Source: a virus
Lineage: Duplodnaviria > Heunggongvirae > Uroviricota > Caudoviricetes
Direction: 5' to 3' (one strand)
IMG/VR virus record: IMGVR_UViG_3300045988_161728
Length of the DNA stretch: 64,000 bases
Shown: one piece after another, positions 2,016 to 57,094 of the stretch
How positions within the stretch are numbered: the stretch's first letter is position 1
How the letters are laid out: each line of letters starts with the position of its first letter
Translations under genes and position numbers: made by a program
The notes under the pieces: generated by a model
Told to the model about the DNA's origin: nothing
The model's database searches: none
What the model saw: the letters and a program-made list of their open reading frames with translations, nothing else

Positions 2016-2032
2016 ACCAACGTTTTTATGCC
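2007..2032 (-). other. cix/gix-like crossover half-site at start of cassette B
   Basis: TTCCCCCAAACC-AA-CGTTTTTATGCC; shares the conserved half with the sites at 1493 and 2494. Confidence 0.4.
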
Positions 2033-17536: not shown

Positions 17537-17832
17537 TAGATTGCTCTAATCTGGAGTCACCTGGCGTTTTCAGTTTGAGGTCGGAGATGCAATCTGATTT
17601 TTTACAGTTAGCGATCGCTTTTGCAGGATATGTTTGTATTGGCTTCTGTGTATACATGATCAGCCGAAAAATGCTTGTCGATATCGACCGCAAAGAACAA
17701 GCAGAGGAGATCTTAGAATGGATTTTCTTTGGCGCGGTCTGGCCATTAGGGATCATGTTTGCTGCAACATTTCTTCTGATGTGGATATTCACCCTTCCAG
17801 GTGATTTCTATAGAAAAAAAGCCAGACATTGA
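17506..17832 (+). CDS. Small membrane protein (P1 RlfA position)
   Basis: 108 aa maximum; two hydrophobic helices; start uncertain. Confidence 0.35.
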   Translation: MGYTGRIQRVIDCSNLESPGVFSLRSEMQSDFLQLAIAFAGYVCIGFCVYMISRKMLVDIDRKEQAEEILEWIFFGAVWPLGIMFAATFLLMWIFTLPGDFYRKKARH

Positions 17833-18014
17833 TACAATCGTTGCGGGTGCTTGAGGCTATCTGCTTCAGGCATTACCCGACAAGCAGATAGAAGAAAGCC
17901 CCAGATAACATTACGCGTCCTGCAAGACGCTTAACATTAATCTGAGGCCATATCTATGCTTAGCATACGTAGATTAGCCCTCTCCCCTTTTTAGGAGCAA
18001 GGAATTTTTTACTG

Positions 18015-18647
18015 CTATGCCGCCTTTCCAATTATGGATTCAGCGACCAGAACAACCCCATGCTTACTTCGATCTGGGTGTTCACTCCATATCTCGGATT
18101 CAGGAATACTTACCCCGTCATAGCAAACACGTTCGCCGTCAAACGGGTAATACTGAGCGGCATCGGTGTCGAGGATAAACACTTTTAGCTCGGAAGAGCG
18201 ACGGGCGATGTGTTGCCAAAGAGCTTTTCCACCTTCGTATTGCTCATTATCACTGAGCAAAACAACACCAGCTTTTGAGGCTACGGTTTCGTAAACAAAA
18301 GTAGCTAAACCGACATCCCGGACGGTTCCATCAACCACGATACCTTCAATCTGGGCAACATCGCTATCCTCCCAGAACTTCCTTACCAGTACGCCTTCAA
18401 GCTGCGGGCGACGTTGAAGTTCAAGAGTAGCGACAACCTTATGGCGCATATCACCATCGATAACAGAAGGCGCAGCCTCTATTACAGCTGCAAATGGGGT
18501 TTTGGAATCCCATATAACCTGGTAAAGCACACCCTGGATGGTAACTCCGTCCAGGATCGAAAATCGACGAGCGACAGTACCCGGGGAGTACGACATTGGA
18601 ATCACAGCCATTTTAGAGTCCCCCTTTAACAGTACAGGCACAAACAT
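18015..18647 (-). CDS. Hypothetical protein
   Basis: 210 aa ORF; likely start at internal Met (MAVIPMS...). Confidence 0.4.
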   Translation of the reverse strand: MFVPVLLKGDSKMAVIPMSYSPGTVARRFSILDGVTIQGVLYQVIWDSKTPFAAVIEAAPSVIDGDMRHKVVATLELQRRPQLEGVLVRKFWEDSDVAQIEGIVVDGTVRDVGLATFVYETVASKAGVVLLSDNEQYEGGKALWQHIARRSSELKVFILDTDAAQYYPFDGERVCYDGVSIPESEIWSEHPDRSKHGVVLVAESIIGKAA

Positions 18648-18782
18648 CTACCTCAATAATTGTAGTTTATTAGAACATTAATAATCTAACATAAAACTCA
18701 AGACAATGTTATCGATGCATTCTTATATAAAATAGTTATAAAAAAAGCTCCCGAAGGAGCTTTAAAATACAAGGGATGACTC

Positions 18783-24237: not shown

Positions 24238-24326
24238 CAAGGTGAAATCGTGGCGATTTCACCTTGAAATTTTAGAGTGATTTACTTTAAAAACAGTAGG
24301 TTAATAGTGAAATTTGAATGGCGAAA
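24238..24326. promoter_or_regulatory. parS: parS partition site
   Basis: GGTGAAATCGTGGCGATTTCACC (box A heptamers ATTTCAC and box B TCGCCA in inverted arrangement) plus further GTGAAAT and TGGCGAA copies across an AT-rich spacer; immediately downstream of parB. Confidence 0.75.
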
Positions 24327-24328
24327 GT

Positions 24329-25330
24329 TTAAGGCTTCGGCTTTTTATCGAGGCTCTTTCTAAGGATATGCCCAATCATCCTGTCGAGTTCTTCCTGTAG
24401 CTCTTTTGAAAGTCGATTAAACTCATAAGAAAATGCACGGCCTTTCACGCGCTTCCTTGCAAAGCGATCCTTGTCCTCAAATTTCCATAATTCAGTAACT
24501 ACGGACTTATCTTTAGAACCTTTATCCGTGAGTAGTGAGGCTTCCTTTGTTATCAAGCGCAGGATTTTATTTTTAACTTCATCTTCGGCCATTTCTTCAA
24601 TGGATAAGATGTCGTTTATTTCCGGGGATATGTTTTGAATAAGCTGATCAAACTCTAAATTCTTGTTCCCCATTTCGTCGCCAACAGCACAAAGCGTTTT
24701 GTAGTCCGAAAAGGTTAATTCCGACTGCACAGGGAAAAGGGCGACTAATTCTTCCGGAGCACTCGCTGCCTGGAGAGCACGCGTGACTTTCGCCTGAGAC
24801 AGCCCTTCCTTGGCTGCAATATCCTTCTGACTCATCCCATCATTTTTCATTCGCATCAAACGCAGACCTATTTCTCGAATGCTGTGCTGCAATGCTGTCT
24901 GAACGTCTTTCGCTAAATTTTGCGCTTCCTGAACGCTGATCTCCTGGTCCGTGACTAAAACCCGCAACCCTACGTTCTCTAAGATGGCAGAAGCTCGACG
25001 CCGGGAACCATCCAAAATTTCAATTTTCCCTGTAGCCCGTCTAACACCTATTGCAGGGTAAAATTGCTGATGCTTAATAGTGCTTCGGATACTTTTTAAT
25101 GATTTTGGCGTAAGAGATGCCTGGTCACGCCCGTTGTTATGCTGATCAACAAAGGTATCGCTTTCTACCTGGTTCGGAGGTATTACCTCTTCAATAAATG
25201 TGGCCTGGCGACCAGTTGATAACTTGAATACCTGCTCGACTCGATCGCCAGAGGCTGAAGAACTATCAAATCCGCTTAATATTGAAGGATTAAGGGTTCG
25301 CCCAATTGTTGGTCTGTTTTTCTTTGACAT
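24329..25330 (-). CDS. parB: Partition protein ParB
   Basis: 333 aa; N-terminus MSKKNRPTIGRTLNPSILSGF; downstream of parA and upstream of parS. Confidence 0.9.
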   Translation of the reverse strand: MSKKNRPTIGRTLNPSILSGFDSSSASGDRVEQVFKLSTGRQATFIEEVIPPNQVESDTFVDQHNNGRDQASLTPKSLKSIRSTIKHQQFYPAIGVRRATGKIEILDGSRRRASAILENVGLRVLVTDQEISVQEAQNLAKDVQTALQHSIREIGLRLMRMKNDGMSQKDIAAKEGLSQAKVTRALQAASAPEELVALFPVQSELTFSDYKTLCAVGDEMGNKNLEFDQLIQNISPEINDILSIEEMAEDEVKNKILRLITKEASLLTDKGSKDKSVVTELWKFEDKDRFARKRVKGRAFSYEFNRLSKELQEELDRMIGHILRKSLDKKPKP

Positions 25331-25346
25331 GGGGGTTTCTTACTCC

Positions 25347-26543
25347 TCAGTTAGATCTGATAAATTCAATACGGTCAAAAACTGCTTTAGCAAAATCTTC
25401 CGCGGCAATTCGCGCGTTCTTCAATGCATCAGCACTACCAACATACGTTGCCGGGTTAGCTGAAATAACAGTGTCAAAAGACTCGCCGCAACGTTCAAAA
25501 CCGTCAAGGCGAGGGAGGACGACATCGAGCATATCCCCACCGAACACTTCTTTAGCCAAGCTATGGCAATACTTATGATCTGCCTTGTTACTCAACTTGG
25601 ACATAAAACCAATGTTAGTCGCAAGCTGGCACTCGCAGCCTTCATCCGAAATGAGTTTCACCAACTCAGGAAGGCGGGCAACGTATTTAAGCGATGAGTG
25701 GAAATCGACAGTTGCTGGCGGCAGAGGTGTAAACAGTATATTGGCCGAGGCCAAAGCATTTTTCAGGAAGGCGTCAAGGTGAGGACCACTATCAACGAGG
25801 ATAAAGTCATAATCGCTCTTCAGCTTATCAATCACATTTTCTTTCAGGACAGCATGGATGTTCTGACCCGGTAGATGCTCATTGCACAGCTCTCTCCAAT
25901 CGGATGCAATAAAGGCATCGTCAATCGACGCAGGCATAACGTCAACCCCAGGTACAACAGAAGGAACAATAAACTCCTCTAACAGCTCTTCACGGCTTAC
26001 ATTCTGCAACATAGCCTGTGCAGATGTTGCGTTTACGATACCAATAGAGTGTTTATGGCTTAAAAACATCGTTGCTGAAGATTGCGGATCAAGGTCAATA
26101 ACCAGAATCCTTAAATCTTCCATCAGAAGATGAGGGTGGGCACGCATTGCATGCGCCAGAGAAACCGTCGATACAGTTTTTGACACACCGCCTTTAAGAT
26201 TGGAGATGAAAATCACATACGCTTCGCTGTAGCGATCCCGGTATTTTGGCACTCCGCGATGTTCATATATGTCAATGATGTTCTGAATTGACATCGCATA
26301 TTTCATTGAAGAGCCAGCAGGGCGTTTATCGAAAACATAGCCCTTTTCTTCCATTTCACTTACGGCATAGTCAACGTTCGCTCGAGTCAGTAGAGGCAAT
26401 TTTGCCAGTGCCGCTTTCGCATAGACCTGGTAAAACTCGTTCGCGTGTAGCTCATCCTTTTGCAACTGTACTTGTTCAGTCAGAACATTGAGCATTCTGT
26501 TTGCTCTTTGAGCAACCTTGTGAAGCTGGCTGGAATCACTCAT
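25347..26543 (-). CDS. parA: Partition ATPase ParA
   Basis: 398 aa; deviant Walker A LKGGVSKT; N-terminal extension typical of type Ia ParA. Confidence 0.9.
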   Translation of the reverse strand: MSDSSQLHKVAQRANRMLNVLTEQVQLQKDELHANEFYQVYAKAALAKLPLLTRANVDYAVSEMEEKGYVFDKRPAGSSMKYAMSIQNIIDIYEHRGVPKYRDRYSEAYVIFISNLKGGVSKTVSTVSLAHAMRAHPHLLMEDLRILVIDLDPQSSATMFLSHKHSIGIVNATSAQAMLQNVSREELLEEFIVPSVVPGVDVMPASIDDAFIASDWRELCNEHLPGQNIHAVLKENVIDKLKSDYDFILVDSGPHLDAFLKNALASANILFTPLPPATVDFHSSLKYVARLPELVKLISDEGCECQLATNIGFMSKLSNKADHKYCHSLAKEVFGGDMLDVVLPRLDGFERCGESFDTVISANPATYVGSADALKNARIAAEDFAKAVFDRIEFIRSN

Positions 26544-26816
26544 CGAAAGTCATCCTTTATGCTGTATTTTTGAATTTAATTAAAAATGCTGCATAAAATA
26601 ATAATGTATGCGTAGATGCTTGTACATAGCATTCTCTGCATGTTTACTCCTTTGCCAAGTGTGTCACAACATGCTTTGGCATCCTCCACGTATAAAGGAC
26701 GCGGATTTCTTCTATGTTCAGGTTGTAGCCTGAATCATTTTGGTGATTTCCTGCTTCAACGGGCAGCCAGGCTTCACTCTCTATCAACTGGTGAGAACGG
26801 CTTGCCCGGCAGCTTC

Positions 26817-27100
26817 GATGTGTGCTGGAGGGAGAATAAAAGTCTAAGATGTGCGATAGAGGGAAGTCGCATTGAATTATGTGCTGTGGAGGGATCGCTG
26901 GTATCAAATATGTGTGCTGGAGGGAAAGACAGAGAATTACATGTGCGCTGGAGGGAAAAACTGATGGACAGATGTGTGCTGGAGGGAAAGTCTGGGCAAA
27001 CTGCGGGGCGTCCCCCTCCAGCGCACATCAAAAACAGGAAATTGGACAAGCCTTCCCGGCAGCACACATTTTTTGAATGCAGCTGCCCTCCAGCACACAC
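26817..27100. repeat. incA iteron array (about 9 RepA-binding repeats)
   Basis: Six copies of GATGTGTGCTGGAGGGAAA-like 19-mers in one orientation (26817..26988) and three in the opposite (27011..27100), abutting the repA stop. Confidence 0.8.
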
Positions 27101-27961
27101 TTATTCGGGGAGTTTCAGCTTTGGATTGCGAGAATGGACGATTACAAAACTTTCCCGGCCTTTCTTCTCAATTGAACAGTCGAGATAGCCGATTGTTTTA
27201 AGCTGTTCTATCGCTTTCTTAATGATACGGTTTTGCTCGCCAACAGCTGACTGCAAAGCCAGGCGCTCACGGATTCGCGCGAACGATAGCGGCAACGGGT
27301 TCTGCGGAAGGCTTTCGATGAAAGTGTAAATGGCTTGTGCAGCTTCTTTCTTCGGAAGGGCACGCAAGGCGTGGTGTTGCAACAGAACGCGATAATCAAG
27401 CTGGAACAGCTCCCACAACTTCGAATCAGCCTCCAGCTCTATCAGATCAAGGTCAGCATCAAAACGCCCGACCTTCAGCAGACCAGTCTGATAGCCGCCT
27501 TTAGCATCTTTTCCGCGCTTAAAAGCGATACCCTTGTTACGCAAGCGTCCAAGTGATTCATGAATGGTTAAACGCAGTTTCGCATCCAGACGTTTTGAGG
27601 GGAAACCACAGGCTTTAGCGAATTCCTGAAACGATAACTGGATGGTGTTTGAGGACAAGCCGTATTTGCTGAACGCGTAGATGACACCGATCCACGTTTT
27701 GAAATCAGTATCCATATCGAGTCGAGGACCGGTGATTTTAATATCATCGTAACCCTCGGCTTTAGCTATCTCCAGCTGGGAAAACGCTTTGGTGGCATCA
27801 ATCTCTTTACTTTCTCCTTTGCTCTTTGATGGCTTCGGCACGAATACCCCCAAGCGCATCAACGCTACAGGCTGCACAGTGTTGTTTGAATTAACTGTTA
27901 GTTCTTTTGCCTTACTTTCAATGTCTGCGTAAAGAATATCGGAGATAAATGATTGATTCAT
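27101..27961 (-). CDS. repA: Plasmid replication initiator RepA
   Basis: 286 aa flanked by iteron arrays on both sides. Confidence 0.9.
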   Translation of the reverse strand: MNQSFISDILYADIESKAKELTVNSNNTVQPVALMRLGVFVPKPSKSKGESKEIDATKAFSQLEIAKAEGYDDIKITGPRLDMDTDFKTWIGVIYAFSKYGLSSNTIQLSFQEFAKACGFPSKRLDAKLRLTIHESLGRLRNKGIAFKRGKDAKGGYQTGLLKVGRFDADLDLIELEADSKLWELFQLDYRVLLQHHALRALPKKEAAQAIYTFIESLPQNPLPLSFARIRERLALQSAVGEQNRIIKKAIEQLKTIGYLDCSIEKKGRESFVIVHSRNPKLKLPE

Positions 27962-28019
27962 ATTACTTTTTCCGAATTGTGTGGATAGTTTTTATAAGTG
28001 GTGATAACTACCCAGGCTT

Positions 28020-28122
28020 TCCCGTCAGCACACATCCTATATCCCGCCAGCACACATTAGCAACCCGTCAGCACACATTTTTATCCCTCCAGCACACATC
28101 GTTTTCCCTCCAGCACACATCG
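28020..28122. repeat. incC iteron array (5 repeats)
   Basis: Five CCAGCACACAT-core repeats spaced about 21 bp, upstream of repA. Confidence 0.8.
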
Positions 28123-28139
28123 CGATACACTTCTAAGCC

Positions 28140-28240
28140 AGACGTGGCGCGGCCTGCAACGATCAGGGATCTATATGGATCTAATTGGGATCTGTATGGA
28201 CCTGATTATTGGATCTACCCAGTGGATAATGTGGATAAGT
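28140..28240. promoter_or_regulatory. oriR core: GATC cluster and tandem DnaA boxes
   Basis: Five GATC in 28150..28215; AGTGGATAA-TGTGGATAA at 28221..28238 (DnaA box TTATCCACA on the other strand). Confidence 0.7.
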
Positions 28241-28287
28241 GAAAAACCGGCCACTGAGGACCGATTTCTGTGAAGAGTTGAAGCGAA

Positions 28288-28689
28288 TTAGTTGTCGTTT
28301 TCCGTACCTACTTCTTCGATCAACAAACTACTTGTATAGATGCGTAACGTATCACCTTTGTAGAGGAATTGATAACCAACACCTCCTATGGCAGGGAGGT
28401 CGGGGAACATTTCAGAAGCAACCCCAGAGCAAATCACGGCGATACAGTCATCCCGCTGTACATCCTTACGCTCTGTACTCAAAGTTTGCTCTTCCCCGAT
28501 TGCCTTTGTCATCTCCTCATCTTCGTACGCAACAGGGATATATTCAATCGCATCAGGCGTTTTGATACCCAGTTCTTCAGCAATCTCGAACGCCTGTTTA
28601 AATTGATCTGACCCAGGATATCCAACGGTAATACTCTCAATTTCGAACAAAGAAGTAGCGTTGTTTATTTCTTGTTTAACCGCAAACAT
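28288..28689 (-). CDS. Hypothetical protein (P1 UpfA position)
   Basis: 133 aa acidic ORF next to oriR. Confidence 0.45.
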   Translation of the reverse strand: MFAVKQEINNATSLFEIESITVGYPGSDQFKQAFEIAEELGIKTPDAIEYIPVAYEDEEMTKAIGEEQTLSTERKDVQRDDCIAVICSGVASEMFPDLPAIGGVGYQFLYKGDTLRIYTSSLLIEEVGTENDN

Positions 28690-28759
28690 GTTGTTTGTCC
28701 TTAGTGGCTTCCTGCCAAAGTAAAGTCATGAGTGTTGATATTACGATTTCTACAGTTGA

Positions 28760-29119
28760 TTAAATCTGCTCGCTGAGCTTTTGCTTCAGCAGATAACCTT
28801 CCAGCGGCCAGATTTTCTCAATGGCGTTCTTACGGGCCACCTTACGGCCAATCTCCGCGTCGAAATTTTCAGGGCTGGCACAGGCGCTTTCCCCGGTAAC
28901 AATGAATCCATTGCACAGCACCAAGACACAGATGGTCAGGCTACGCGTAGAGGGATGAACAGACAGCACCTCACGAACGCCTTCGTGCGCAGCGCGAATG
29001 CCGTCAAAAGCTGTGAAATAATGCTCTTCGGCAATCACACTCTCGATGTGATCAGGAGTCAGGCGTGGTGCTGTTTTGCCTTTGGCCAGAATCTCTTTTT
29101 CAATTTCCATATCGGACAT
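28760..29119 (-). CDS. Hypothetical protein
   Basis: 119 aa ORF, no clear RBS conflict. Confidence 0.45.
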   Translation of the reverse strand: MSDMEIEKEILAKGKTAPRLTPDHIESVIAEEHYFTAFDGIRAAHEGVREVLSVHPSTRSLTICVLVLCNGFIVTGESACASPENFDAEIGRKVARKNAIEKIWPLEGYLLKQKLSEQI

Positions 29120-29130
29120 AGTTTTTCCTT

Positions 29131-29463
29131 TTAGTTACCGCTGATAGCACGGTTGTAATCATTAACGTTGCGATTCTTCCTGTTAATCCCCTTCAGCATC
29201 GTTTCTGTATCGAGGATATACGCTGGCAGATCATCAAAATATTCACTGCTAAACTCTGGCATTCTGCACATAAATGCACTTTTGGGGGCAGGGTGGTTAA
29301 CCTTTGTCGGCGTCGGCGTTAAATTCGCTGATCGACTCCCGGAGCAACCGCTGAGTGTCAGCAGGAATGCGCTGGCGAACATTACCCGCCGCAACCAGTT
29401 GTTTCTGAACTTCAGCTTTTCGTTCCATTTGCCTGTCAGCATATTTGGCTTGTTCTGATTCAT
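29131..29463 (-). CDS. mlp: Lipoprotein, o-spanin (Rz1)-like (P1 Mlp position)
   Basis: Lipobox LTLSGC followed by Pro/Thr-rich segment; 5' part overlaps the 3' end of the upstream gene in another frame; true start probably internal (29442 or 29382). Confidence 0.5.
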   Translation of the reverse strand: MNQNKPNMLTGKWNEKLKFRNNWLRRVMFASAFLLTLSGCSGSRSANLTPTPTKVNHPAPKSAFMCRMPEFSSEYFDDLPAYILDTETMLKGINRKNRNVNDYNRAISGN

Positions 29464-29719
29464 TTTTCACTTCCTGGCTGTGAAAATGTTGCTCTGCTTT
29501 GTTCATCGTCTCAATGGTCTGGTTAAGATCCATTATTGACTTATCACGTTCCTTAACAGCCTGATCAAGACTGCCAATTTTCTCCATGGCTTGCTTTAGC
29601 TGATGACGTTCCCATGCAAACCCAGCACCAACAAGTGCGCAAATCAGAACAAGAACACCAGTAGCAGCAAGTTTCTCCTTCAAAGACAAAGCTGTTTTTA
29701 ACGTAGAAAAGAATGACAT
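29297..29719 (-). CDS. Type II membrane protein, i-spanin (Rz)-like (P1 PpfA position)
   Basis: Start ATG 29719 with AGGAGG RBS (ORF track starts at 29746); N-terminal TM helix then charged coiled-coil-like periplasmic domain, about 140 aa. Confidence 0.5.
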   Translation of the reverse strand: MSFFSTLKTALSLKEKLAATGVLVLICALVGAGFAWERHQLKQAMEKIGSLDQAVKERDKSIMDLNQTIETMNKAEQHFHSQEVKNESEQAKYADRQMERKAEVQKQLVAAGNVRQRIPADTQRLLRESISEFNADADKG

Positions 29720-29758
29720 GTCTTCCTCCTGAAGAAAAATTATCAATGAAGTCCTTTG

Positions 29759-30547
29759 TTACTGTGCCGCTTTGTTTAATTCATCAAGAACAGAATCAGG
29801 AACCAAAGCGGCAACTGCGCTGGCTGTGCTGACCTTATTTGCTGATGCTTCCGCAAGCGCGGTACCGATAGCATGGTTATAAGCAGTTATGGCTACGTTG
29901 GCGCTTTCATTCGCTCGTTCATACTGCTGTTGTAACGCAGTTGTGGGCGCTGTTGTCTGGTTGAAAACAACCCCAAACTGTTCAGTTGCTACTTTCAGAG
30001 ATTCAATTTGCTCTTCTGTTAGTGCTGGTGGGGGAGTGGCAGTGCCGCCGCCTGAACCAGAGCCTGACGAGCTTCCTGAGCCAGTGTTAAGGGTCTGGTT
30101 AATCTCCCCCATAGCAGCGACTAAACTTGATGTATTAAGCGCGTTTACAGCGTCCTCAAGCGATTTAGTAATAGTCACATCACCAATGGCAATAGAGATC
30201 GGCAGTTCTGATACTTCTCGCTCATTAGCACGACAGTAAACATCCCAACCAATATCGAGTTGAAGGAGCATTGACAGATCAGCATAACCAGCCAACAGGT
30301 CCGCGTGCTTAGTTGCCAGTTCTCCAATGTTCGTTAAGCCGGTTGTGGTTGTTCTGATCGTTGAAATATAGCTGGTAATAGTGTCGGGATAGACAATTGT
30401 ATCCAGAATTAATCCGGTCAATTCTTCTGCAAGCAGTTTTGCTGTGTTAGCACTGTTTCGTGCCGATGTTATGGCACCAGGTGTTTTCATCCCACCGGCG
30501 GCGGCCAATTTTTTATATGCGGATAACTGGTAGTCTTTTTCCAGCAT
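29759..30547 (-). CDS. Two-domain protein with Gly/Ser linker (P1 UpfB position)
   Basis: Start MLEKDY at 30547 (ORF track 30604); GSGSSSGSGSGGG linker between domains; directly downstream of the PAAR gene. Confidence 0.45.
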   Translation of the reverse strand: MLEKDYQLSAYKKLAAAGGMKTPGAITSARNSANTAKLLAEELTGLILDTIVYPDTITSYISTIRTTTTGLTNIGELATKHADLLAGYADLSMLLQLDIGWDVYCRANEREVSELPISIAIGDVTITKSLEDAVNALNTSSLVAAMGEINQTLNTGSGSSSGSGSGGGTATPPPALTEEQIESLKVATEQFGVVFNQTTAPTTALQQQYERANESANVAITAYNHAIGTALAEASANKVSTASAVAALVPDSVLDELNKAAQ

Positions 30548-30555
30548 GATATCTC

Positions 30556-30840
30556 CTAACTTACCTGAACCAGGCCGTCTCCGGACGCTACGGTAGATCC
30601 GCATGAAACAGGGTCACCAACGCATACGATCCCTTTACCATTGACGGTAAACCATGCCCTGGTTGATATAGCTTGCCCACCGTGCGTACTGTTTCCATCG
30701 GTATGCTGTGCATATTGCTTACCATCAACTAACACTTCGACTCCGTTGACTTTAAGTAGTGGTTCACTCTCTACAGGAGGCCTGGATGGGAATCCTCCGT
30801 GCCCCGAACAAATGCTGTCTTTTGTTGCAATACTTGCCAC
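30556..30840 (-). CDS. PAAR-repeat-like spike-tip protein
   Basis: 94 aa with spaced Cys/His (CSGHGG, HTDG, THGG, VCVGDPVSCGS) and VNG/V.V.G beta-strand pattern characteristic of PAAR domains. Confidence 0.55.
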   Translation of the reverse strand: MASIATKDSICSGHGGFPSRPPVESEPLLKVNGVEVLVDGKQYAQHTDGNSTHGGQAISTRAWFTVNGKGIVCVGDPVSCGSTVASGDGLVQVS

Positions 30841-30920
30841 GTCATCACCAATTATTTGCTCTGGTTTTCGTTATTTTAACTTAGGTTACTTGTGGTCTAT
30901 ATGGTGTTAACTATTGCATG

Positions 30921-30937
30921 ATTGCTCTAATAAATAT
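30921..30937 (+). promoter_or_regulatory. C1-operator-like site
   Basis: ATTGCTCTAATAAATAT upstream of the uhr/hrdC-like genes. Confidence 0.55.
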
Positions 30938-31008
30938 TGTTTTTTATGTCGTGTTTTCGGTACCATTCAGCCATCGCCCTTCAATGGGTATTTGTTTGGA
31001 GTCGTCAG

Positions 31009-31293
31009 ATGCAGATGGAGCTAATAAGCCGCAAAGAGTTCGATAGCCGTGTAACCAGCGGTGAACTCGACAACTTGCAGGCTATCAAGGTGAAAGAAGG
31101 CTTTTGCCTCATTGGGAATCAGAGCGGAACAAATCGCGTTTTTATGCTTCGCCGTACGGATTTGAAGCCATTTGTCTGGAAGAACGAAATTGGTCCCAGC
31201 TCATACGCTCAAACTAGGGGGTGCCTCAACCTGGCCTTTTTCTACAAAAACGAGCTTTCTGTGGTTGATATTCAAGGGTTACAACATGTTTAA
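31009..31293 (+). CDS. Hypothetical protein upstream of hrdC
   Basis: Start at 31009 with GGAG RBS; ORF track 30937..31293. Confidence 0.35.
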
Positions 31294-32191
31294 GCACTGG
31301 AAAAACATTACTATTTATAAACTTTCTCGTGAAGCGGATCTGACCGACTTAGAAGATAAAAAGAAAATGATCCTTTTCACGCCATGCGGTAGTCAGGATA
31401 TGGCCAAGTTCGGTTTTGTATCTCCATTTGGTGATAATTCCGAAGTTATCGCTATGCATGGAAATGGTTTTATCCTTGTTGAAGCAAAGCGCGAAACAAA
31501 AATCCTTCCCCCGCCGGTTATCCAGCGAGCTATTCAAGAAAAAATTGAAAAACTCGAGCAAGAACAAGCGCGTAAACTGAAGAAAACAGAGAAGGACTCC
31601 CTGAAAGACGAAGTTCTGCATTCTCTTCTGCCACGGGCTTTTTCAAAGTTTTCTGTTATCCAGGCGATCTACGACGGTTCAACTAAACGTATCTATATCA
31701 ATGCCAGCGCGCGGCAGGCAGAGGATATGCTCGCGCTTATGCGTAAATCTCTGGGTTCTCTTCCTGTTGTTCCCCTAAGTGTTGAAAATCCCATTGAATT
31801 AACGCTGACCGACTGGGTACGTGATGGTAGTGCTCCACAGGGATTTCAAATGGGGGATGCGGCAGAACTTAAGGCAGTGCTTGAGGATGGCGGTATTGCC
31901 CGAGTGAAAAAGCAGGATTTGGGAAGCGATGAAATTTCCACACACCTGGAAGCTGGCAAGCTCGTTACTAAGTTGGCACTCGACTGGCAGAACCGCATTA
32001 AATTTACACTGGACCATAACTTCAGCCTTACCAGCGTCAAATTTGCGGATGAATTGCTTGAGCAGAACTCTGATATTGATAGTGAAGATGTTGCGCAGCG
32101 ACTGGACGCAGATTTCTTCCTGTTGACCAGTGAAATTTCGTGCCTGGTTGATGCTCTGGTAAATGCCCTTGGTGGAGAGGCTAAGCAGTGA
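31286..32191 (+). CDS. hrdC: RdgC-family recombination-associated protein
   Basis: Starts [13 protein letters not shown], which aligns with the RdgC N-terminus (MLWFKNLMVYRL); about 302 aa as in RdgC; the ORF track's upstream start at 31172 is likely read-through. Confidence 0.75.
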
Positions 32192-34206
32192 AAGAGCTGT
32201 GCTATGGATCTGTTTGCAGTGGAATTGAAGCCGCGAGTATTGCCTGGGAACCGTTGGGTATGCGTCCGGCGTGGTTTGCTGAAATCGAGCCTTTTCCATC
32301 TGCCGTTCTTGCGCACCGCTGGCCCCATGTCGCCAACCTTGGCGACATGACAAAACTTGCCAAAAAAGTCCTGGCTGGGGAAATCGAATCCCCTGATGTG
32401 CTCGTCGGGGGTACGCCTTGTCAGGCATTCAGTATCGCGGGCTTACGTGGTGGGCTTGATGATGAACGCGGCGCGCTAACTTTGAAGTATGTGGAGCTTG
32501 CAAATGCAATTGACGACAAACGGTCTGAGTCCTTCCTCAAACCGACAGTTATCGTCTGGGAAAATGTCCCAGGAGTCCTGTCATCGGCAGATAACGCCTT
32601 CGGATGTTTCCTTGCCGGATTGGCTGGAGAAGATGCGCCATTTGAACCAGGTGATCGACCTGAATCAGGAAAAAGTAACGCGTTCTGGCGGTGGGATGGC
32701 AAAACCGGTTGCCATGCTCCAAAGTGGCCGCAGTGTGGTTGTATTTATGGACCGCAGCGAAAGGTGGCCTGGAGAATCCTTGATGCCCAATACTTCGGAG
32801 TGGCACAACGACGCCGACGCGTGTTTGTTGTCGCAAGTGCTCGAACAGACCTCGATCCCGCAACGGTACTTTTTGAGTTCGAAGGCGTGCGCCGGAATAT
32901 TGCGCCGAGCAGAGGCGAGGGGAAGGAAACTACCAGATATACTTCAAACATCGCTATCAGATCTTGCGATGATACAAACATAGTTGCCATGGCACATGGG
33001 CAAGGAGGGGCTGAGATAAAAACCGATAATTCGGCACCAACTTTGACATGTAACCATGAAGCACCAATTGTATTGCTCGTCGACGGTAGAATGCGCCGTC
33101 TTATCCCTGTCGAATGTGAAAGGCTGCAAGGTTTTCCTGATGGACATACATTGATCCCTACGGAAAAGCGTAAAAAAGTTTCTTCAGATGAACTGGCATA
33201 CCTTCGCAAAAACTATCCTGATTTGAGCGAAGAAGAGGCCGCGATGCTTGCAGCTGACGGACCGCGTTACAAAGCGATCGGCAATAGTATGGCGATACCA
33301 GTAATGCGCTGGATTGGCGATCGGATTGCCAAGGCTGCATGTCGGCAGAAGGAAGGGAGTGAAACAAAAGAGCGAAAAGTTAAACCAGCGGCAGAATTCG
33401 AACGGTCCATATTCAAATGGGCTGGTGGAAAATTTGGTGTTCTGGAACAAATCTTTCGCTATTTGCCAGAAGGGAAGCGCCTGATTGAGCCTTTCGTTGG
33501 TGGCGGAGCTGTCTTCATGAATGCCGGATACCAGGAAAATCTGCTAAATGATGTGAATGCTGACCTGATTAACTTTTACAAGACTCTGCAACGCGAGGCG
33601 CATTCACTTATCACTCTGGCACATCGTTTCTTCCAGGACTACAACACGCAGGAAGGATACCTGGCAGTACGGAATGCGTTTAACAAACAAGTCTATGATG
33701 ATTTACATCGCGCAGCGGCGTTTTTGTTCCTGAACCGACATTGTTTTAACGGATTGACGCGTTACAACCAAGCCGGTGAGTTCAATGTCGGTTATGGGAA
33801 GTATAAAACTCCGTATTTCCCATTGCAGGAGATGGAAGCCTTCCTTGGTGCGGAAGGGCGTTCTGAGTTTGTATGTGGTGATTTTGCTGCGGTGATTGAA
33901 GCTGCCGGAGAAGGAGATGTCATCTTTTGCGATCCGCCGTATGAACCGCTCCCAAATACAGAGGGATTCACGAACTATTCCGGTCATGACTTTAAGTTTG
34001 AAGAGCAAAAACGCCTGGCGTCTCTGTTGACGGATGCTCATCGCCGAGGTGCAAAGGTTCTCATTACTAACAGTGGCGCGCCAAACATCAGAGAACTTTA
34101 TCAGGACAGTGGCTTCAGAGTGGAACCTCTTTTTGCCAGACGTTCTGTGTCTTGTAAGGGGGACACTCGAGGTGTTGCTCATGACGTTATAGCAATATTG
34201 CTCTAA
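32188..34206 (+). CDS. dmt: Bifunctional DNA methyltransferase (N-terminal C5-cytosine, C-terminal Dam-like N6-adenine)
   Basis: C5-MTase motifs [11 protein letters not shown] and ENVPG in the first half; Dam-type FKWAGGK and DPPY in the second half; GTG start with GGAGAGG RBS. Confidence 0.85.
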
Positions 34207-35830: not shown

Positions 35831-35963
35831 CACGCGGGGAAATGGTTATATCAGTCCATTCATTTCTCCTTGTTTCCCCGTCCACGGTGGATAACCAGCC
35901 AAAGGACACCGGGAGGCACCCGGCACCGCAGCTTTTTTATTCGTTAAATAATGGAGTGAGAGG

Positions 35964-36200
35964 ATGCAGAACAATCCGAACAAATGTCGAACGCTATGGG
36001 TGCGGTTATATATTTATGCCGTCCTCTGTTTGATTGTGTCACTGGTTCTGTATGTTTGGCTTTTGCCAAATATGATCTCATCTAACAGCACAATACTTGT
36101 ATTGTTGGGAGTCCTTCTCGCGCTCATTTACCCGGCTTTCGCAGTAGTCTTTTTTCGTGAAAAAACCAGGAAATTAATTAATGAAAAAAACGTTGATTAG
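35964..36200 (+). CDS. Small inner-membrane protein (two TM helices)
   Basis: 78 aa hydrophobic ORF, stop overlaps plp start. Confidence 0.4.
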   Translation: MQNNPNKCRTLWVRLYIYAVLCLIVSLVLYVWLLPNMISSNSTILVLLGVLLALIYPAFAVVFFREKTRKLINEKNVD

Positions 36201-37008
36201 TGCAGCGATTATTTTGGGTTCTTTATGTCTGACCGGATGCGATCGGGTAGAGCCAGGTAACGTAGGGATCAAAGTAAATAAGCTGGGGGATGATAAAGGT
36301 ATCGGTGAAGTAGTTGGCGTTGGTCGCTACTGGACAGGCTTGAATACTGAAGTTTATATCTTCCCGACCTTTAAGCAAATGAAGACATACGATGAGCCGT
36401 TCAGCTTCCAGATGAGCGACGGAACAACCATTGGTTACCACATCGGCGTAGCCTACAAGGTTGATCCAGCAAAAGTCACAACGGTATTTCAGACCTATCG
36501 CAAAGGTGTAGATGATATTACTGATACCGATCTACGCCAGAAGGTTGCAGATGCTCTGAACCGGTTAGCCAGCAAAATGACCACCGACAAATTTATCGAC
36601 GGTGGCAAATCTGAATTGCTTGATGCAGCCCTTAAAGACATTCAGGAAGAAATGACGCCAATCGGCATTCAGGTGATGAGCCTCTCTTATGTAGGTAAGC
36701 CAGAATACCCGCCAACAGTTATTGACAGTATTAACGCCAAAGTCACGGCAAACCAAAAAACCCTGCAACGCGAGCAAGAGGTCAAACAACGTGAAGCAGA
36801 GGCCAACATGCTGCGCGCGGAAGCTGCCGGACAGGCTGATGCTATTCGCACAAAAGCCCAGGCCGAAGCTGATGCCATTCGTTTACGTGGTGAAGCTCTG
36901 CGCCAGAACCCCGGTGTTATGGAGTTGGAAGCGATCAACAAATGGAACGGTACATTACCGCAGTATATGACCAGTAATACCGCTGTTCCGTTTGTTCCGG
37001 TGAAATAA
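36181..37008 (+). CDS. plp: SPFH/band-7-like lipoprotein Plp
   Basis: Lipobox LCLTGC after signal peptide; C-terminal Ala/Glu/Gln-rich coiled segment typical of SPFH proteins. Confidence 0.65.
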   Translation: MKKTLISAAIILGSLCLTGCDRVEPGNVGIKVNKLGDDKGIGEVVGVGRYWTGLNTEVYIFPTFKQMKTYDEPFSFQMSDGTTIGYHIGVAYKVDPAKVTTVFQTYRKGVDDITDTDLRQKVADALNRLASKMTTDKFIDGGKSELLDAALKDIQEEMTPIGIQVMSLSYVGKPEYPPTVIDSINAKVTANQKTLQREQEVKQREAEANMLRAEAAGQADAIRTKAQAEADAIRLRGEALRQNPGVMELEAINKWNGTLPQYMTSNTAVPFVPVK

Positions 37009-37035
37009 AAGCGTAAGCAAAATTGGCAGTAATCC

Positions 37036-51606: not shown

Positions 51607-51838
51607 ACAGAACGAAAAGGCTATCGCTCAAATTGCTGATTATATCCCGCGTGCGTGCCGGGGTATGCAGTTGCAGGAAGCCAAAGCGCGCCTGGAGAAA
51701 AAAATTGCGCTCTATATTGATGACGGCTGTGATGCTGCTGTTCTTAACGCAGCGTTCGCGCCAGCTCTTAACAGTCATACGCGGGAGTCTTTTTTTTCGC
51801 GCATCGCAGCGCAGATCCGTAAAGGAGGCAACCAGTGA
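51599..51838 (+). CDS. Small hypothetical protein
   Basis: 79 aa; overlapping stop/start with neighbours. Confidence 0.3.
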   Translation: MFKQNEKAIAQIADYIPRACRGMQLQEAKARLEKKIALYIDDGCDAAVLNAAFAPALNSHTRESFFSRIAAQIRKGGNQ

Positions 51839-52560
51839 GCGAAATTAACTATAAAGAACTGCGCGAGGCGGCGAAACAGGCAACGCAAGATGAATGGGTA
51901 GCATATATTTTGCCGGGTCATAACGGCATTTATCCTGCGCGCACGTCTGAGGGTAGGCATTGCGGATACTTTATTGACTGGCCTAGCGTCTGTCAGGGGC
52001 GGGAGAGCATCAACATGAGCATCAGAACCTACGCAGTGAATTGCAATGACGCATGGCTAAACACCGAAGGTGATGACATCTCCGGCTCATACGTTAAGTA
52101 CAAAGACCATCAGGAAGTGGTTGCCGCTCTTGAGGCCAAGTGCGCGGCGCTGGCGGCGGAGAATGAGCTGGCTCGTAAGGCAGTTCAGGCATTCTGCGAT
52201 GTTGTTGGCGACAACACCGAGGTTATCGCTGAGGAGGTTGGGCGAGATGGCGTTCTGGTTATTTTGGGGGCCATGAAGGCAACAGGAAATATTTCAGCCA
52301 CCGATGCTTTTCTGGCTGAAATTCGTGCGGAAGCACGCAACGAGGGGATTAACTATACCGCCAGCCGTCTTGCTGCTGCGTTCAATCACGGATTTATCAA
52401 TAAATCTTTGCGTGAAGTTTTCGACGTTACACGCATGATTTTGTCAGCGAAAGAAGAGTTGGCTAATGAACCGCATCCGATTGATGGCCTGTCCGGTGAA
52501 TATGCGGAGAAATCCCTTGAAGAATGGGCGGAACAGATTCGCAAAGGAGGCAAGCAGTGA
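51835..52560 (+). CDS. Ead/Ea22-like protein
   Basis: N-terminus MSEINYKELREAAKQAT, paralogous to 52858..53415. Confidence 0.45.
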   Translation: MSEINYKELREAAKQATQDEWVAYILPGHNGIYPARTSEGRHCGYFIDWPSVCQGRESINMSIRTYAVNCNDAWLNTEGDDISGSYVKYKDHQEVVAALEAKCAALAAENELARKAVQAFCDVVGDNTEVIAEEVGRDGVLVILGAMKATGNISATDAFLAEIRAEARNEGINYTASRLAAAFNHGFINKSLREVFDVTRMILSAKEELANEPHPIDGLSGEYAEKSLEEWAEQIRKGGKQ

Positions 52561-52856
52561 GTGTATATCTTATTGATAAACGTCGACGTGGGCAACAAAT
52601 ACCACCTGTAGGAATTCCGAATCACACATGGTTTTGCGTACTTGATATCGATGGTATGGATGCGTTGGTTGACACTCGTCATTACTGCGATACCGCAACA
52701 GCTACTCCGGCGAAAGCAAAGAAAATGGCTGCTCTGATAGAAAACTGGACTCCACCTGATGGTTGGTGCAATGGGAATGATCGAGATTGGCATGAAAAAA
52801 TGAAGGGCTATATCTGCGATTTCTTACGTAAATGCAACGGATTCAGGGTGATGTGA
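52554..52856 (+). CDS. Small hypothetical protein (GTG start)
   Basis: GGAGG RBS before GTG; ORF track gives an upstream Met start at 52524. Confidence 0.3.
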   Translation, partial: AVSVYLIDKRRRGQQIPPVGIPNHTWFCVLDIDGMDALVDTRHYCDTATATPAKAKKMAALIENWTPPDGWCNGNDRDWHEKMKGYICDFLRKCNGFRVM

Positions 52857-52857
52857 C

Positions 52858-53415
52858 ATGAACAAGATTGACTATCAGGCACTGCGTGAGGCGGCAGAGA
52901 AGGCAACGTGGGGAGACTGGGACTCATATAAACCACACCGTGGCGCACGTGGTTATGAGGTCCGACTAAGTAGTCAGGCCATTGCGCAACACGTTCTGAA
53001 AAACAACGCTGAATTTATTGCTGCCTTTAATCCAAAGATTGCTTTGGCACTACTGGATGAACGGGAAAGGAACCAGCAATACATCAAATCCCGCGACCAG
53101 GAGAACGAGGATATTGCACTAACGGTAGGGAAGTTGCGCGTTGAGCTGGAAGCAGCAAAATCAAAACTCAACGAGCAGCGTGAGTATTACGAAGGTGTTA
53201 TCTCTGATGGGAGTAAGCGCATAGCAGAGTTAGAAAGTGGTTCTCAGGCACAAAAGTTAGTTGAAGCAATCATTGTTGCGATAGAAAACGAACAGGAACG
53301 TCTTTTTGATGAAGATTACCTAATGGATTCGAAAGAATGCATTGACGTAATTCGTGAAGAAGTAAAGCGATGGGATGATTCCCGCGCCGCTGGCATTGGC
53401 ATCAAAGGAGAGTGA
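52858..53415 (+). CDS. Ead/Ea22-like protein
   Basis: N-terminus MNKIDYQALREAAEKAT. Confidence 0.45.
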   Translation: MNKIDYQALREAAEKATWGDWDSYKPHRGARGYEVRLSSQAIAQHVLKNNAEFIAAFNPKIALALLDERERNQQYIKSRDQENEDIALTVGKLRVELEAAKSKLNEQREYYEGVISDGSKRIAELESGSQAQKLVEAIIVAIENEQERLFDEDYLMDSKECIDVIREEVKRWDDSRAAGIGIKGE

Positions 53416-53416
53416 T

Positions 53417-53680
53417 ATGGCAACTTTGACAAAAAAAGAACAAGCATGGTTGAGCGAATTACAGGACGTTCTTGATCGCTGCCCATCACCGAAAAAAATT
53501 GGTTTTTACACCATTGGCGATAAAAGCATTTACCTGTATGACCTGCGCCGCATGGATGAAATCATGGAGGCTCTTGATAATCGTTCGTCAATGGATTGGT
53601 GTGTTGCTGTTCATGATATGAATGCCGGATTTGATGAAAAGATTTTATTCCCCTCATCAGTTGAAAGTACAGCAGGATAA
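53417..53680 (+). CDS. Small hypothetical protein
   Basis: Start MATLTKKEQ with GGAGAG RBS; ORF track 53375. Confidence 0.35.
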   Translation: MATLTKKEQAWLSELQDVLDRCPSPKKIGFYTIGDKSIYLYDLRRMDEIMEALDNRSSMDWCVAVHDMNAGFDEKILFPSSVESTAG

Positions 53681-53690
53681 GGACTAACAC

Positions 53691-54578
53691 ATGACCACTA
53701 TTACCAAAGAGCGACTGCTGACAATCAGGCAGTGGCGCGAAACATACGGACCTGGTAGCAACGTTGTACTGCCAGCAGAAGAAGCGGAAGAACTGGCACG
53801 AATTGCTCTGGCATCGCTGGAGCAGAATGCACTATCTGGCAACTCTCGGCTTATTCCTGGTGAAGTGTTGTCCGCAATCCGGGAGGTTGCCAAGATTCGT
53901 GCCGATTTCGATGATTTTGACGGTGACAGGCGAGGTATCGGTGATTGTCTGGATGAGGCCGAGCAAGAGCTTATCGTTACCATTAACAAATATGCCAGTC
54001 AGTTGGCAGCAGAACCGATAGCGACTAATGACGTTCGAGAGCAAACAGCCGTTCCGCCAATACAGGCTGATGTCGCGCAAGCAATTGAAAATCTCAAGCA
54101 GAAGTTAGTGGAATGCAATCGCTATAACTACTGCGCAGATGCAGTGAAGAACGTAGAGGATGCCTGCCGTGCTGTTAGCTATAGCCAAGCCGACAATCAG
54201 CCAGCATCTGGCAACCAGGCTGCCGAATCCAATCGCGGTAATGAGTGGACTGGCAATCCTGATATTGATAACGCCATCATCATGCTCGACCGCATAGATA
54301 CGCTGGAAAATTGCGATGATGACCGTATTGAGGCTGTTAAGGCTGTTTTGCGTAGACTGGCTGGCAACTCTCCGGTAACTCCGGATAGTTGGATAAGCTG
54401 TAGTGAGCGAATGCCCGCTCAAGATGATTGGATTTTAATTTATTCAAAGCACGGCGAGTATATGGCAGGCCAGGTGCAAGGGGAATACGTGGAGTTGAGC
54501 GACGGCACTTTATCGTGGTTAGGGAACGCCTTGTTCTGGATGCCGCTACCAGAACCGCCGCAGGAGGTGAATCAATGA
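53691..54578 (+). CDS. Ead/Ea22-like protein
   Basis: N-terminus MTTITKERLLTIRQWRETYG; 295 aa. Confidence 0.45.
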   Translation: MTTITKERLLTIRQWRETYGPGSNVVLPAEEAEELARIALASLEQNALSGNSRLIPGEVLSAIREVAKIRADFDDFDGDRRGIGDCLDEAEQELIVTINKYASQLAAEPIATNDVREQTAVPPIQADVAQAIENLKQKLVECNRYNYCADAVKNVEDACRAVSYSQADNQPASGNQAAESNRGNEWTGNPDIDNAIIMLDRIDTLENCDDDRIEAVKAVLRRLAGNSPVTPDSWISCSERMPAQDDWILIYSKHGEYMAGQVQGEYVELSDGTLSWLGNALFWMPLPEPPQEVNQ

Positions 54579-54660
54579 GCTGGCCTGAAGCATTCACCAC
54601 GGTAGGAATTGTGATGGCGGCAGCACTGGGTTTGTATTCAATTTGTCGCTGGTGGTAACG
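54577..54660 (+). CDS. Small hydrophobic peptide (27 aa)
   Basis: MSWPEAFTTVGIVMAAALGLYSICRWW; ATGA overlap with the preceding gene. Confidence 0.3.
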
Positions 54661-54894
54661 ATGGGAAAAATAACTTTTGTAGTCGAATTTGAGGATGGCA
54701 AAGAGCCACCTGTTAGCGCCAATCTTGATGTTGCTGGTGGCAGGCTTGTTTCGGTTCTATTTGGTGACTACCGAGATGACTTCTTCCAACCAGAAGAAGT
54801 TGATGTAGTGCGAGAGGCATTAAACGAGTTAAGTGTTGATAACGATGATGCTCATGCGGAAATCATCCAAAAAATGGAACTGCTAACTCACTAA
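54661..54894 (+). CDS. Small acidic protein
   Basis: 77 aa from ATG 54661. Confidence 0.3.
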   Translation: MGKITFVVEFEDGKEPPVSANLDVAGGRLVSVLFGDYRDDFFQPEEVDVVREALNELSVDNDDAHAEIIQKMELLTH

Positions 54895-54949
54895 ATTATC
54901 AATTATGGTGCTATCACCTACGACACCGAGAGAAAATTTATAATGTCAA

Positions 54950-55072
54950 AAGTAAATGTTTTGATTTTTTCAGCAATTGTTGGCTTTGGTTTTACTGCCG
55001 GAGTGCAGATTTATATTACGTGGGAAAAAATCATCAACTACGCATGGAGTTGTTTTATTAAGTGAGGTAAGT
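54950..55072 (+). CDS. Small hydrophobic peptide (40 aa)
   Basis: MSKVNVLIFSAIVGFGFTAGVQIYITWEKIINYAWSCFIK. Confidence 0.3.
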
Positions 55073-55366
55073 ATGTGGAGAGGTAATAGTCATGGCAAAA
55101 GCCAGATGATACTTACCGAATATCAGTTTGACCATAAAACCAATAAATCACGTTCAGTATATTTGCTTCGGCACAATAGCCGCGTAAGGAATACCGTGCT
55201 GGAGCAAAATCTGACTGTTGAAATAGATAATTACGGGGGCTTCAAGCCAACAATTTCGCTTGATGATTTTCCTCGTGGTTTAAGCGAAAGAGAAGCAATG
55301 CTGAAATTAGCAGAATGGCTACAAAGATTAAGCATTGCTATTGAAGATAACTGGTCTGAACCTTAA
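55073..55366 (+). CDS. Hypothetical protein
   Basis: Start MWRGNSHGK with GAGG RBS; ORF track 54977. Confidence 0.35.
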   Translation: MWRGNSHGKSQMILTEYQFDHKTNKSRSVYLLRHNSRVRNTVLEQNLTVEIDNYGGFKPTISLDDFPRGLSEREAMLKLAEWLQRLSIAIEDNWSEP

Positions 55367-55372
55367 ATTTAT

Positions 55373-55747
55373 ATGATGACACTAAAACATTTTCTTGACC
55401 GCCCATTATGGGCGGCAGCCGCAGGCTATGACTTTAATTATATGGATTGCATGTCTTATACCGCCAATGCATACGACTATTCCTTCAGTCTGCTGCTTAA
55501 TTCTTTAAGAATATTGCCGCAAACAGAAGTTGGAGAGCTTCATTTATGGCTATTGGGCTTTATCGCGGCTGGAGTTGGTATTGCTGTATGGCCTTTTATT
55601 TTCTGGCTGGTGGCTGTTGTAGTGTGGTTTAAGTGCAAGACGTACCGGAGAAAGTATTTCTTAGGTGATGGAATGACTGATATTGCCAAAATGAACATTG
55701 AAAAATGGACTAAGGAATGTGAAAAGAAATGGCGCAAAAAGAAATGA
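55373..55747 (+). CDS. Membrane protein
   Basis: 124 aa with central hydrophobic hairpin and Lys-rich tail. Confidence 0.4.
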   Translation: MMTLKHFLDRPLWAAAAGYDFNYMDCMSYTANAYDYSFSLLLNSLRILPQTEVGELHLWLLGFIAAGVGIAVWPFIFWLVAVVVWFKCKTYRRKYFLGDGMTDIAKMNIEKWTKECEKKWRKKK

Positions 55748-57020: not shown

Positions 57021-57094
57021 ACTACAGGTACCCACCAGCACATACAGAAAATGATTGTTTCCACATCAAGGAGATTTTAATGTTTCACTGAACA

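Follow-up and report, generated by a model that had tools for sequence, protein, structure and literature searches.

The overlapping ppfA and mlp genes of a P1-like phage-plasmid as a probable two-component spanin pair

Results

The ppfA/mlp gene pair in a P1-like phage-plasmid

The window, a stretch of 64,000 nucleotides from virus record IMGVR_UViG_3300045988_161728, belongs to a P1-like phage-plasmid (Punavirus). About 2.2 kb around the gene pair described here has 95-99% nucleotide identity with P1, P7, SJ46, RCS47 and other Punavirus records, and the flanking RepA, iterons, ParA and divergent uhr-hrdC-dmt genes agree with the map of P1. Aligned to a P1 genome by megablast, the window extends from the S tail-fibre gene as far as the c1/coi region; a few blocks are variable. 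The two open reading frames of the pair are ppfA (P1_gp064) and mlp (P1_gp063) of P1, both on the minus strand. A single substitution separates PpfA from its P1 counterpart (99.3% identity), and three separate Mlp from its own (97%). Punavirus records name the pair ppfA/mlp, 'Rz/Rz1' or 'Rz-like spanin'. The features of the locus are collected in Table 1.

Table 1. Positions of the ppfA/mlp genes, their signals and their upstream neighbours in the window
Feature	Position	Strand	Description and basis
mlp	29131..29463	-	110-aa precursor, 71-aa mature predicted lipoprotein; +1 frame relative to ppfA
Dual-coding overlap, 167 nt	29297..29463	-	Codes for residues 86-140 of PpfA and 1-55 of Mlp
ppfA	29297..29719	-	ATG start, 140 aa, predicted i-spanin
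Mlp lipobox L37-S38-G39-C40	29344..29355	-	Regular-expression match; LLTL[SN][GA]C in 6/6 relatives
AGGAAG, likely ribosome-binding site for mlp Met1	29470..29475	-	Inside ppfA; also in SpaninDB
PpfA transmembrane segment LAATGVLVLICALVGAGFA, codons 17-35	29615..29671	-	Kyte-Doolittle maximum
Shine-Dalgarno AGGAGG of ppfA	29725..29730	-	5 nt upstream of ATG; identical Shine-Dalgarno in SpaninDB for P1 gp064
upfB	29759..30604	-	P1 virion 'tripod' protein; 39 nt upstream of ppfA; open reading frame, phrog_1559, P1 annotation
upfC	30556..30840	-	PAAR-like spike-tip protein; first gene of the co-oriented string; phrog_281 (2e-30)
Candidate Lpa-type late promoter AAGTAACCT-N4-TAAAAT	30873..30891	-	Weakly supported; 33 nt upstream of upfC

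PpfA as a predicted i-spanin

Residues 17-35 of PpfA form its sole strongly hydrophobic stretch, with a Kyte-Doolittle 19-residue mean of 2.35, and 36% of the remaining 104 residues are charged. An AlphaFold2 model built with 14 homologues, of moderate confidence (mean pLDDT 67), has one helix from residue 13 to 111, a break at residues 112-119 (GNVRQRIP) and a C-terminal helix at residues 120-137. No periplasmic cysteine is present. Judged from its sequence and the model, PpfA would have the single N-terminal transmembrane domain and the largely helical periplasmic domain that define an i-spanin. The sequence-only reading of this locus had described the frame at 29297..29719 as an N-terminal transmembrane helix followed by a charged domain, and the hydropathy, the charge content and the modelled helices, read on the minus strand, bear this out. 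It had also placed the outer bounds of the pair at 29131-29746. Both frames do lie within these bounds, while position 29746 is just an in-frame TTG upstream in the ppfA reading frame.

Mlp as a predicted o-spanin

The lipoprotein frame with an LTLSGC lipobox that had been noticed in another frame is present at 29131-29463, and it is mlp. The predicted lipidated residue of Mlp is Cys40, and the +2 position is occupied by Ser41, not Asp. The sequence of Mlp accordingly has what is expected of an o-spanin, namely that of a small predicted lipoprotein with a lipobox and without the Asp at +2 that acts as an inner-membrane retention signal. The hydrophobic region of the signal peptide is preceded by RR. 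The signal peptide itself is unusually long (39 residues, with a long n-region), and SpaninDB flags it as 'too long signal sequence'. The Pro/Thr-rich segment that had been pointed out is there, and the enrichment of the mature N-terminus in Pro, Thr and Ser is moderate: of its first 25 residues, 4 are Pro, 3 are Thr and 4 are Ser. When a simple rule (signal plus lipobox) was applied to the window, 2 of its 203 open reading frames with 50 aa or more had lipoprotein-type signals, as compared with 0.17 on average in a shuffled window.

Mlp contains a single periplasmic cysteine, Cys66 (Cys27 of the mature protein), which is invariant across the relatives. It is through this residue that the predicted pair has the periplasmic cysteine, at least one, expected of a spanin system. 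Met28 was also considered as the true start of mlp and was rejected: Met1 is kept in all relatives and Met28 is not, and a start at Met28 would leave a 12-residue signal without an n-region. Many gene callers skip mlp or predict just its 3' part.

Overlap and conservation of both reading frames

The start codon of mlp lies in the +1 frame at codon 86 of ppfA (nt 257), with 256 nt of ppfA before it. The overlap accounts for 39% of the length of ppfA and for half that of mlp. The statement that mlp starts inside the 3' end of ppfA is therefore right as to the start being inside ppfA, but an overlap of 39% of the gene takes in more than its 3' end. The overlap encodes the Mlp signal peptide, the lipobox and the first 16 residues of the mature protein. 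By position, the predicted o-spanin gene thus stands in one of the arrangements recognised for such genes (embedded in the i-spanin gene, overlapping it or directly downstream of it), mlp being an overlapping one.

The relatives used for comparison were Cronobacter phage JK004, a Salmonella contig and Klebsiella contigs, in which PpfA is about 60% identical, and, as the most divergent, a 94-kb Pantoea contig in which PpfA is 33% identical. In each of these, the +1 frame stays open for 109-110 codons and the start codon is in the same place. Invariant in Mlp of the relatives are Cys66 within AFMC.MP, and the motifs DDLP.YIL and INRKN.N.N.YN. The gene order upfC-upfB-ppfA-mlp is kept down to the Pantoea element.

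Against the relatives with about 60% PpfA identity, the divergence per site is 0.38-0.40 in the segment coding for PpfA only, 0.26-0.29 in the segment coding for Mlp only, and 0.21-0.24 in the overlap, the lowest of the three. In the mlp-only segment, 27-28 of the 42-47 substitutions (62-65%, counted pairwise against the same relatives) are at third codon positions of mlp. Because of this third-position bias and because the overlap is the least diverged segment, both the ppfA and the mlp frames are under purifying selection. Judged from these sequence comparisons, ppfA and mlp are genuine genes, conserved as a pair down to 33% PpfA identity. The worry that the lipoprotein frame may not be translated is answered, at the evolutionary level, by this substitution pattern and by the conservation of the frame.

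Relationship to known spanin families

In a search of the PHROGs, PpfA matched phrog_89 'Rz-like spanin' over its full length (1.2e-25). Mlp matched the P1-specific phrog_30284 (3e-76) and, more weakly, phrog_456 (1.3e-5). In the same library, P2 LysB matched phrog_89 (5.8e-61), and P2 LysC matched phrog_456 (1.7e-31) with a reciprocal match to phrog_30284 (5.4e-4). When Mlp and P2 LysC were compared directly, hhalign gave a probability of 91% (E 1.1e-6) and BLASTP an E value of 4e-8, with 37% identity over 68 residues (identity range 34-37%). The aligned parts are the signal peptide, the lipobox, the PTP/PK stretch, the C-x-M-P motif and the D-L motif. The best NCBIfam match of Mlp was NF038368 (P2_Rz1) at 14.9 bits, under the cut-off of 27. 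These sequence comparisons support Mlp as a distant homologue of P2 LysC and not as its equivalog. Very likely the same likeness is the basis of the 'homology, aa 24-90' in the original GenBank note on mlp.

Direct comparison of PpfA with P2 LysB was not significant by hhalign (probability 1.7%) or by BLASTP (E 57), and the best NCBIfam match of PpfA, TIGR03495 (phage_LysB), reached 19 bits, under the cut-off of 92.75. The link between PpfA and LysB comes from the deep PHROG profile alone, and profile matches of this sort can be inflated by transmembrane and coiled-coil composition. PpfA had no match to Pfam Rz at E < 0.1, where only sub-threshold coiled-coil noise was seen, and Mlp matched nothing in Pfam. 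Absent among the PHROG matches of PpfA and Mlp were phrog_13 and phrog_3198, which P22/lambda-type proteins match. An exhaustive phmmer search with PpfA against 1.84 billion representatives returned P1-like relatives only, including one 33%-identical Pantoea protein, and gave no connection to the canonical lysis cassettes. Among 50,697 phage records searched by tblastn, PpfA matched Punavirus-like records only. A sequence search of the PDB gave a chance match only. On these searches, ppfA/mlp form a narrow family of their own, which is probably a remote relative of the overlapped spanins of P2.

Gene neighbourhood, lysis genes and promoters

The pair had been placed in a replicon-proximal operon. 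It does adjoin the replicon, but it is better described as part of a gene string that begins with upfC and upfB and carries the virion spike tip and tripod genes. UpfC matched PF05488 at 8.5e-6 and 26.4 bits, just under the curated cut-off of 27, and upfC overlaps upfB by 49 nt. By cryo-EM of P1, UpfC has been identified as the PAAR-like spike tip and UpfB as the 'tripod' on the tail tip (PMC12810830; see also PMC9024508), and the spike-tip assignment of UpfC draws on HHpred as well. Downstream of mlp, a gp49-family gene follows after 11 nt, and then an upfA-like gene. No convincing terminator was found among upfC-upfB-ppfA-mlp and the downstream genes. Since upfC and upfB encode virion proteins, the string appears to be morphogenetic and to belong to the lytic phase, which fits a late-acting lysis function. 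As judged only from the gene spacing, ppfA and mlp are probably co-transcribed with upfC and upfB, and such co-transcription would give them late expression.

A late-promoter pattern, AAGTNACTT-N4-TANNNT, was derived from the annotated LPs promoter and had 8 matches in the window against 1.09 expected; the site upstream of upfC has one mismatch. Since neither reference P1 nor the divergent relatives have a good match to this late-promoter-like site, we give it little weight. The P1 annotation contains no late promoter for the upfC-upfB-ppfA-mlp operon, and the only promoters that it predicts before ppfA are of the sigma-70 type (P1ppfA and P2ppfA). Our scan of the region for sigma-70 promoters and terminators did not rise above the shuffled expectation, and the predicted sites were weak. 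An Rfam scan of positions 26000-33000 found nothing, and a repeat scan found short chance repeats only. In the main text of two P1 transcriptome papers, ppfA, mlp, upfB and upfC are absent.

The pair had also been described as separated from any holin or endolysin gene. This holds for the P1 genes lyz, lydA, lydB and lydC, which have no homologue in the 64-kb window by blastn and tblastn. For lydD/lydE, the coverage consisted of blastn with the stretch downstream of lyz. The screen thus covered lysis genes of the P1 type. In P1 itself the lyz/lyd genes are more than 30 kb from ppfA/mlp. In terms of sequence position, then, ppfA/mlp would lie outside a lysis cassette; a place inside such a cassette, beside holin and endolysin genes, is typical of spanin genes and does not define them.

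Knockdown of ppfA and mlp in P1vir

A genome-wide dCas12a CRISPRi screen of P1vir, plated in top agar with 5 mM Ca2+ and Mg2+, has scored both genes as non-essential. The efficiency of plating was 1.3 +/- 1.2 upon knockdown of ppfA and 0.24 +/- 0.19 upon knockdown of mlp. Knockdown of the upstream genes upfC and upfB, which is supposed to be polar, gave 1.1 and 1.3, respectively, and both were scored as non-essential. Knockdown of lambda Rz in the same assay gave 5e-4 and was scored as essential. The authors of the screen stress that the roadblock efficiency is variable, and since the lambda endolysin R was also scored as non-essential, the assay appears to be leaky for lysis genes. The result weakens the view that ppfA/mlp are required for plaque formation; it does not refute their assignment as spanins.

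Discussion

The gene pair is ppfA and mlp of a P1-like phage-plasmid, and we consider it highly probable that it encodes a two-component spanin of the P1 type. The sequence-only reading had taken the pair as spanins, and that reading holds up: every sequence-level feature by which two-component spanins are recognised was found in PpfA and Mlp, together with the distant homology of Mlp to LysC and the match of PpfA to phrog_89. By analogy with lambda Rz/Rz1 and T4 PseT.3/PseT.2, PpfA would be anchored in the inner membrane, its helical domain facing the periplasm, and Mlp would be processed as a lipoprotein, by lipidation and by cleavage with signal peptidase II, and be delivered to the outer membrane. 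The C-termini of the two proteins would then bind to each other and form a bridge threaded through the peptidoglycan. Any covalent dimer must be between Mlp molecules, because PpfA has no periplasmic cysteine, and on the same analogy Mlp probably forms dimers by way of its one invariant cysteine in the periplasm. Once the SAR endolysin Lyz degrades the wall, the complexes would be free to collapse and to fuse the inner and outer membranes, and this fusion would remove the last barrier to phage release.

The pair adjoins the plasmid replicon and is distant from the lysis genes, and this would also suit an envelope pair with a role other than lysis, for instance in superinfection exclusion or in the fitness of the host, with expression during the plasmid state from sigma-70 promoters. 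The lambda Bor/Cor and T5 Llp proteins are models for such a role. That the P1 annotation predicts only sigma-70 promoters ahead of ppfA, and that no plating defect was seen on CRISPRi knockdown, speak for it as well. Nevertheless, a type II membrane protein that has a helical periplasmic domain, paired with an outer-membrane lipoprotein that is encoded in an overlapping +1 frame is the signature of spanins, and Mlp is homologous to P2 LysC. The virion proteins encoded by the neighbouring upfC and upfB point to an operon of the lytic and not of the lysogenic phase, and the sigma-70 sites are weak in a region where promoter-like matches are not above chance. We therefore regard a purely non-lytic envelope role as quite improbable. 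The tight, co-oriented string upfC-upfB-ppfA-mlp, with a 39-nt gap before ppfA and no terminator, could in turn suggest that PpfA and Mlp, being encoded in one operon with UpfC and UpfB, aid the membrane-piercing apparatus of the tail tip in assembly or DNA injection. The retention of this gene order down to the Pantoea element is in keeping with that idea; however, it is not independent evidence for it, because the order is inherited within one phage lineage. Neither protein is mentioned as a virion component in the cryo-EM study (PMC12810830) or the LC-MS/MS proteome paper (PMC9024508), and the Sec and lipoprotein export signals target the envelope of the producing cell, which makes a tail-tip function very improbable.

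As for the reality of mlp, an open +1 frame of 55 codons across the overlap is not rare alone, and the failure of many gene callers to report more than the 3' part of mlp, if anything, would agree with a chance, untranslated frame that leaves ppfA as the sole gene. Against this stand the 27-28 of 42-47 substitutions that fall on mlp third positions downstream of ppfA, the invariance of the lipobox, Cys66 and the long C-terminal motifs where PpfA is just 33-60% identical, and the significant similarity of Mlp to P2 LysC; we give a chance frame almost no credence. It is unlikely, too, that the P1-type pair is something other than simply a lysis spanin. In such a case the pair, dispensable for plaques in the presence of Ca2+/Mg2+ and transcriptionally coupled to the spike-tip and tripod genes, would have a second role in the envelope (exclusion or help in piercing), or the outer membrane would be passed by another route. 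The two-component spanin remains the reading that we prefer.

The identification of the P1 pair as spanins is already known, and our reading is identical to the published one. The first identification of the P1 spanins is that of Summer et al. 2007, cited in PMC9025707, which refers to 'the spanin genes of P1' as predicted, with the labels i-spanin and o-spanin exchanged, and treats their separation from the holin and endolysin genes as a known peculiarity of P1. In the SpaninDataBase (Kongari et al. 2018), P1 and P7 are entered as 'ovl', with gp064 as i-spanin 'OIS' and gp063 as o-spanin 'OOS', each in a 'P1' family. The RefSeq product name of mlp is 'Rz-like spanin', and several GenBank records use Rz/Rz1. 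In a set of 77 P1-like plasmids, ppfA and mlp belong to the 21 genes with the highest conservation (PMC9603915). What was recovered here from raw sequence is thus a spanin pair catalogued since 2007, and the finding adds little to what was known of it.

Among known systems, PpfA (gp064) and Mlp (gp063) of P1/P7 are essentially the same genes, with the overlap, the +1 frame, the ribosome-binding sites and the neighbours shared; unlike P1/P7, the element described here has an additional N4-gp49-family gene downstream of mlp and carries a different upfA allele. P2 LysB/LysC share the overlapped architecture with ppfA/mlp. The numbers of periplasmic cysteines in the i-spanin and in the o-spanin are 0 and 1 in the P1 pair but 2 and 4 in P2, and the P2 spanin genes sit in the lysis cassette, whereas those of P1 do not. 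The P1 pair resembles lambda Rz/Rz1 in its predicted topology, in having the lipoprotein gene in the +1 frame and in the fusion of membranes that is presumed as the mechanism (PMC6139136). On the other hand, lambda Rz1 is wholly embedded in Rz while only half of mlp lies within ppfA; there are two disulfide-forming cysteines in lambda Rz and none in PpfA; and lambda Rz/Rz1 directly follow S and R while ppfA/mlp are apart from the lysis genes. A periplasmic cysteine is present in 507 of 528 spanin systems, so that it is common but not absolute (PMC6139136). The T4 pair PseT.3/PseT.2, which complements lambda Rz/Rz1, is unlinked from the holin and endolysin genes, as is the P1 pair, and its i-spanin, like PpfA, is without a periplasmic cysteine, so that covalent dimerisation rests on the o-spanin (PMC6139136). 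The T4 o-spanin has two essential cysteines and Mlp has one (PMC6139136), and the T4 spanin genes are separated and non-overlapping, whereas ppfA and mlp overlap.

Assignment of the predicted spanin pair

The 2022 paper on the P1 holin called mlp the i-spanin and ppfA the o-spanin (PMC9025707). Sequence features and SpaninDataBase show the reverse, with PpfA as the predicted i-spanin and Mlp, encoded by the overlapping gene, as the predicted o-spanin. Many gene callers left out mlp or called its 3' part alone.

Sequences flanking the predicted spanin genes

The pattern derived from the annotated P1 LPs promoter (Lpa-dependent) had 8 matches in the window versus 1.09 expected, and a late-promoter-like site, AAGTAACCTAAGTTAAAAT, was located 33 nt upstream of upfC, a co-oriented gene upstream of ppfA. 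At the same spot, reference P1 had 3 mismatches to the pattern, and the divergent relatives did not match it. Between upfC and uhr, a ATTTATTAGA(G/A)CAAT element was conserved even among 60%-diverged relatives. It corresponds to Odmt (Op68), a C1 operator that the P1 annotation assigns to the divergent Pdmt promoter.

On the downstream side, an 11-nt gap separates mlp from an N4 gp49 / Sf6 gp66-family gene. Reference P1 has no such gene at the position downstream of mlp, and the alignment of most P1 records to the window ends at 29127. Phage vB_EcoM-813R1 and the P1-like elements of Salmonella and Pantoea do carry the gene.

Features identified in the window
Feature	Position	Strand	Basis
N4 gp49 / Sf6 gp66-family gene, 119 aa	28760-29119	-	PF13876, 1.1e-33
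AAGTAACCTAAGTTAAAAT, P1 Lpa-dependent late-promoter pattern, 1 mismatch	30873-30891	-	pattern match
ATTTATTAGA(G/A)CAAT element, upfC/uhr intergenic region	about 30925-30940		conservation upstream of upfC in relatives
dmt methyltransferase ORF, 672 aa	32188-34206, junction near 32420	+	comparison with P1 OP279344
SPFH/Band-7 family protein, 275 aa	36181-37008	+	PF01145, 9.7e-31
Unaligned block, tail-fibre end	1-3108		megablast vs P1 OP279344
Unaligned block, rlf region	17550-18741		megablast vs P1 OP279344
Unaligned block, par region	24273-26814		megablast vs P1 OP279344
Unaligned 7-kb block between pmgT and phd	51233-58296		megablast vs P1 OP279344

Comparison with P1

Blocks were defined by their failure to align to the P1 genome OP279344 in megablast. 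The SPFH/Band-7 gene is inside one such block (35930-37027), a place occupied in OP279344 by the tciA-C region; its product has a lipoprotein signal, LTGC, in which the next residue is Asp, a signal for inner-membrane retention. The blocks at the tail-fibre end, rlf, par and pmgT-phd match the variable regions reported in P1-like plasmids. The dmt ORF lacks about 1.0 kb of P1 (61918-62937), apparently in frame, and encodes 672 aa in the window versus 1013 aa in OP279344.
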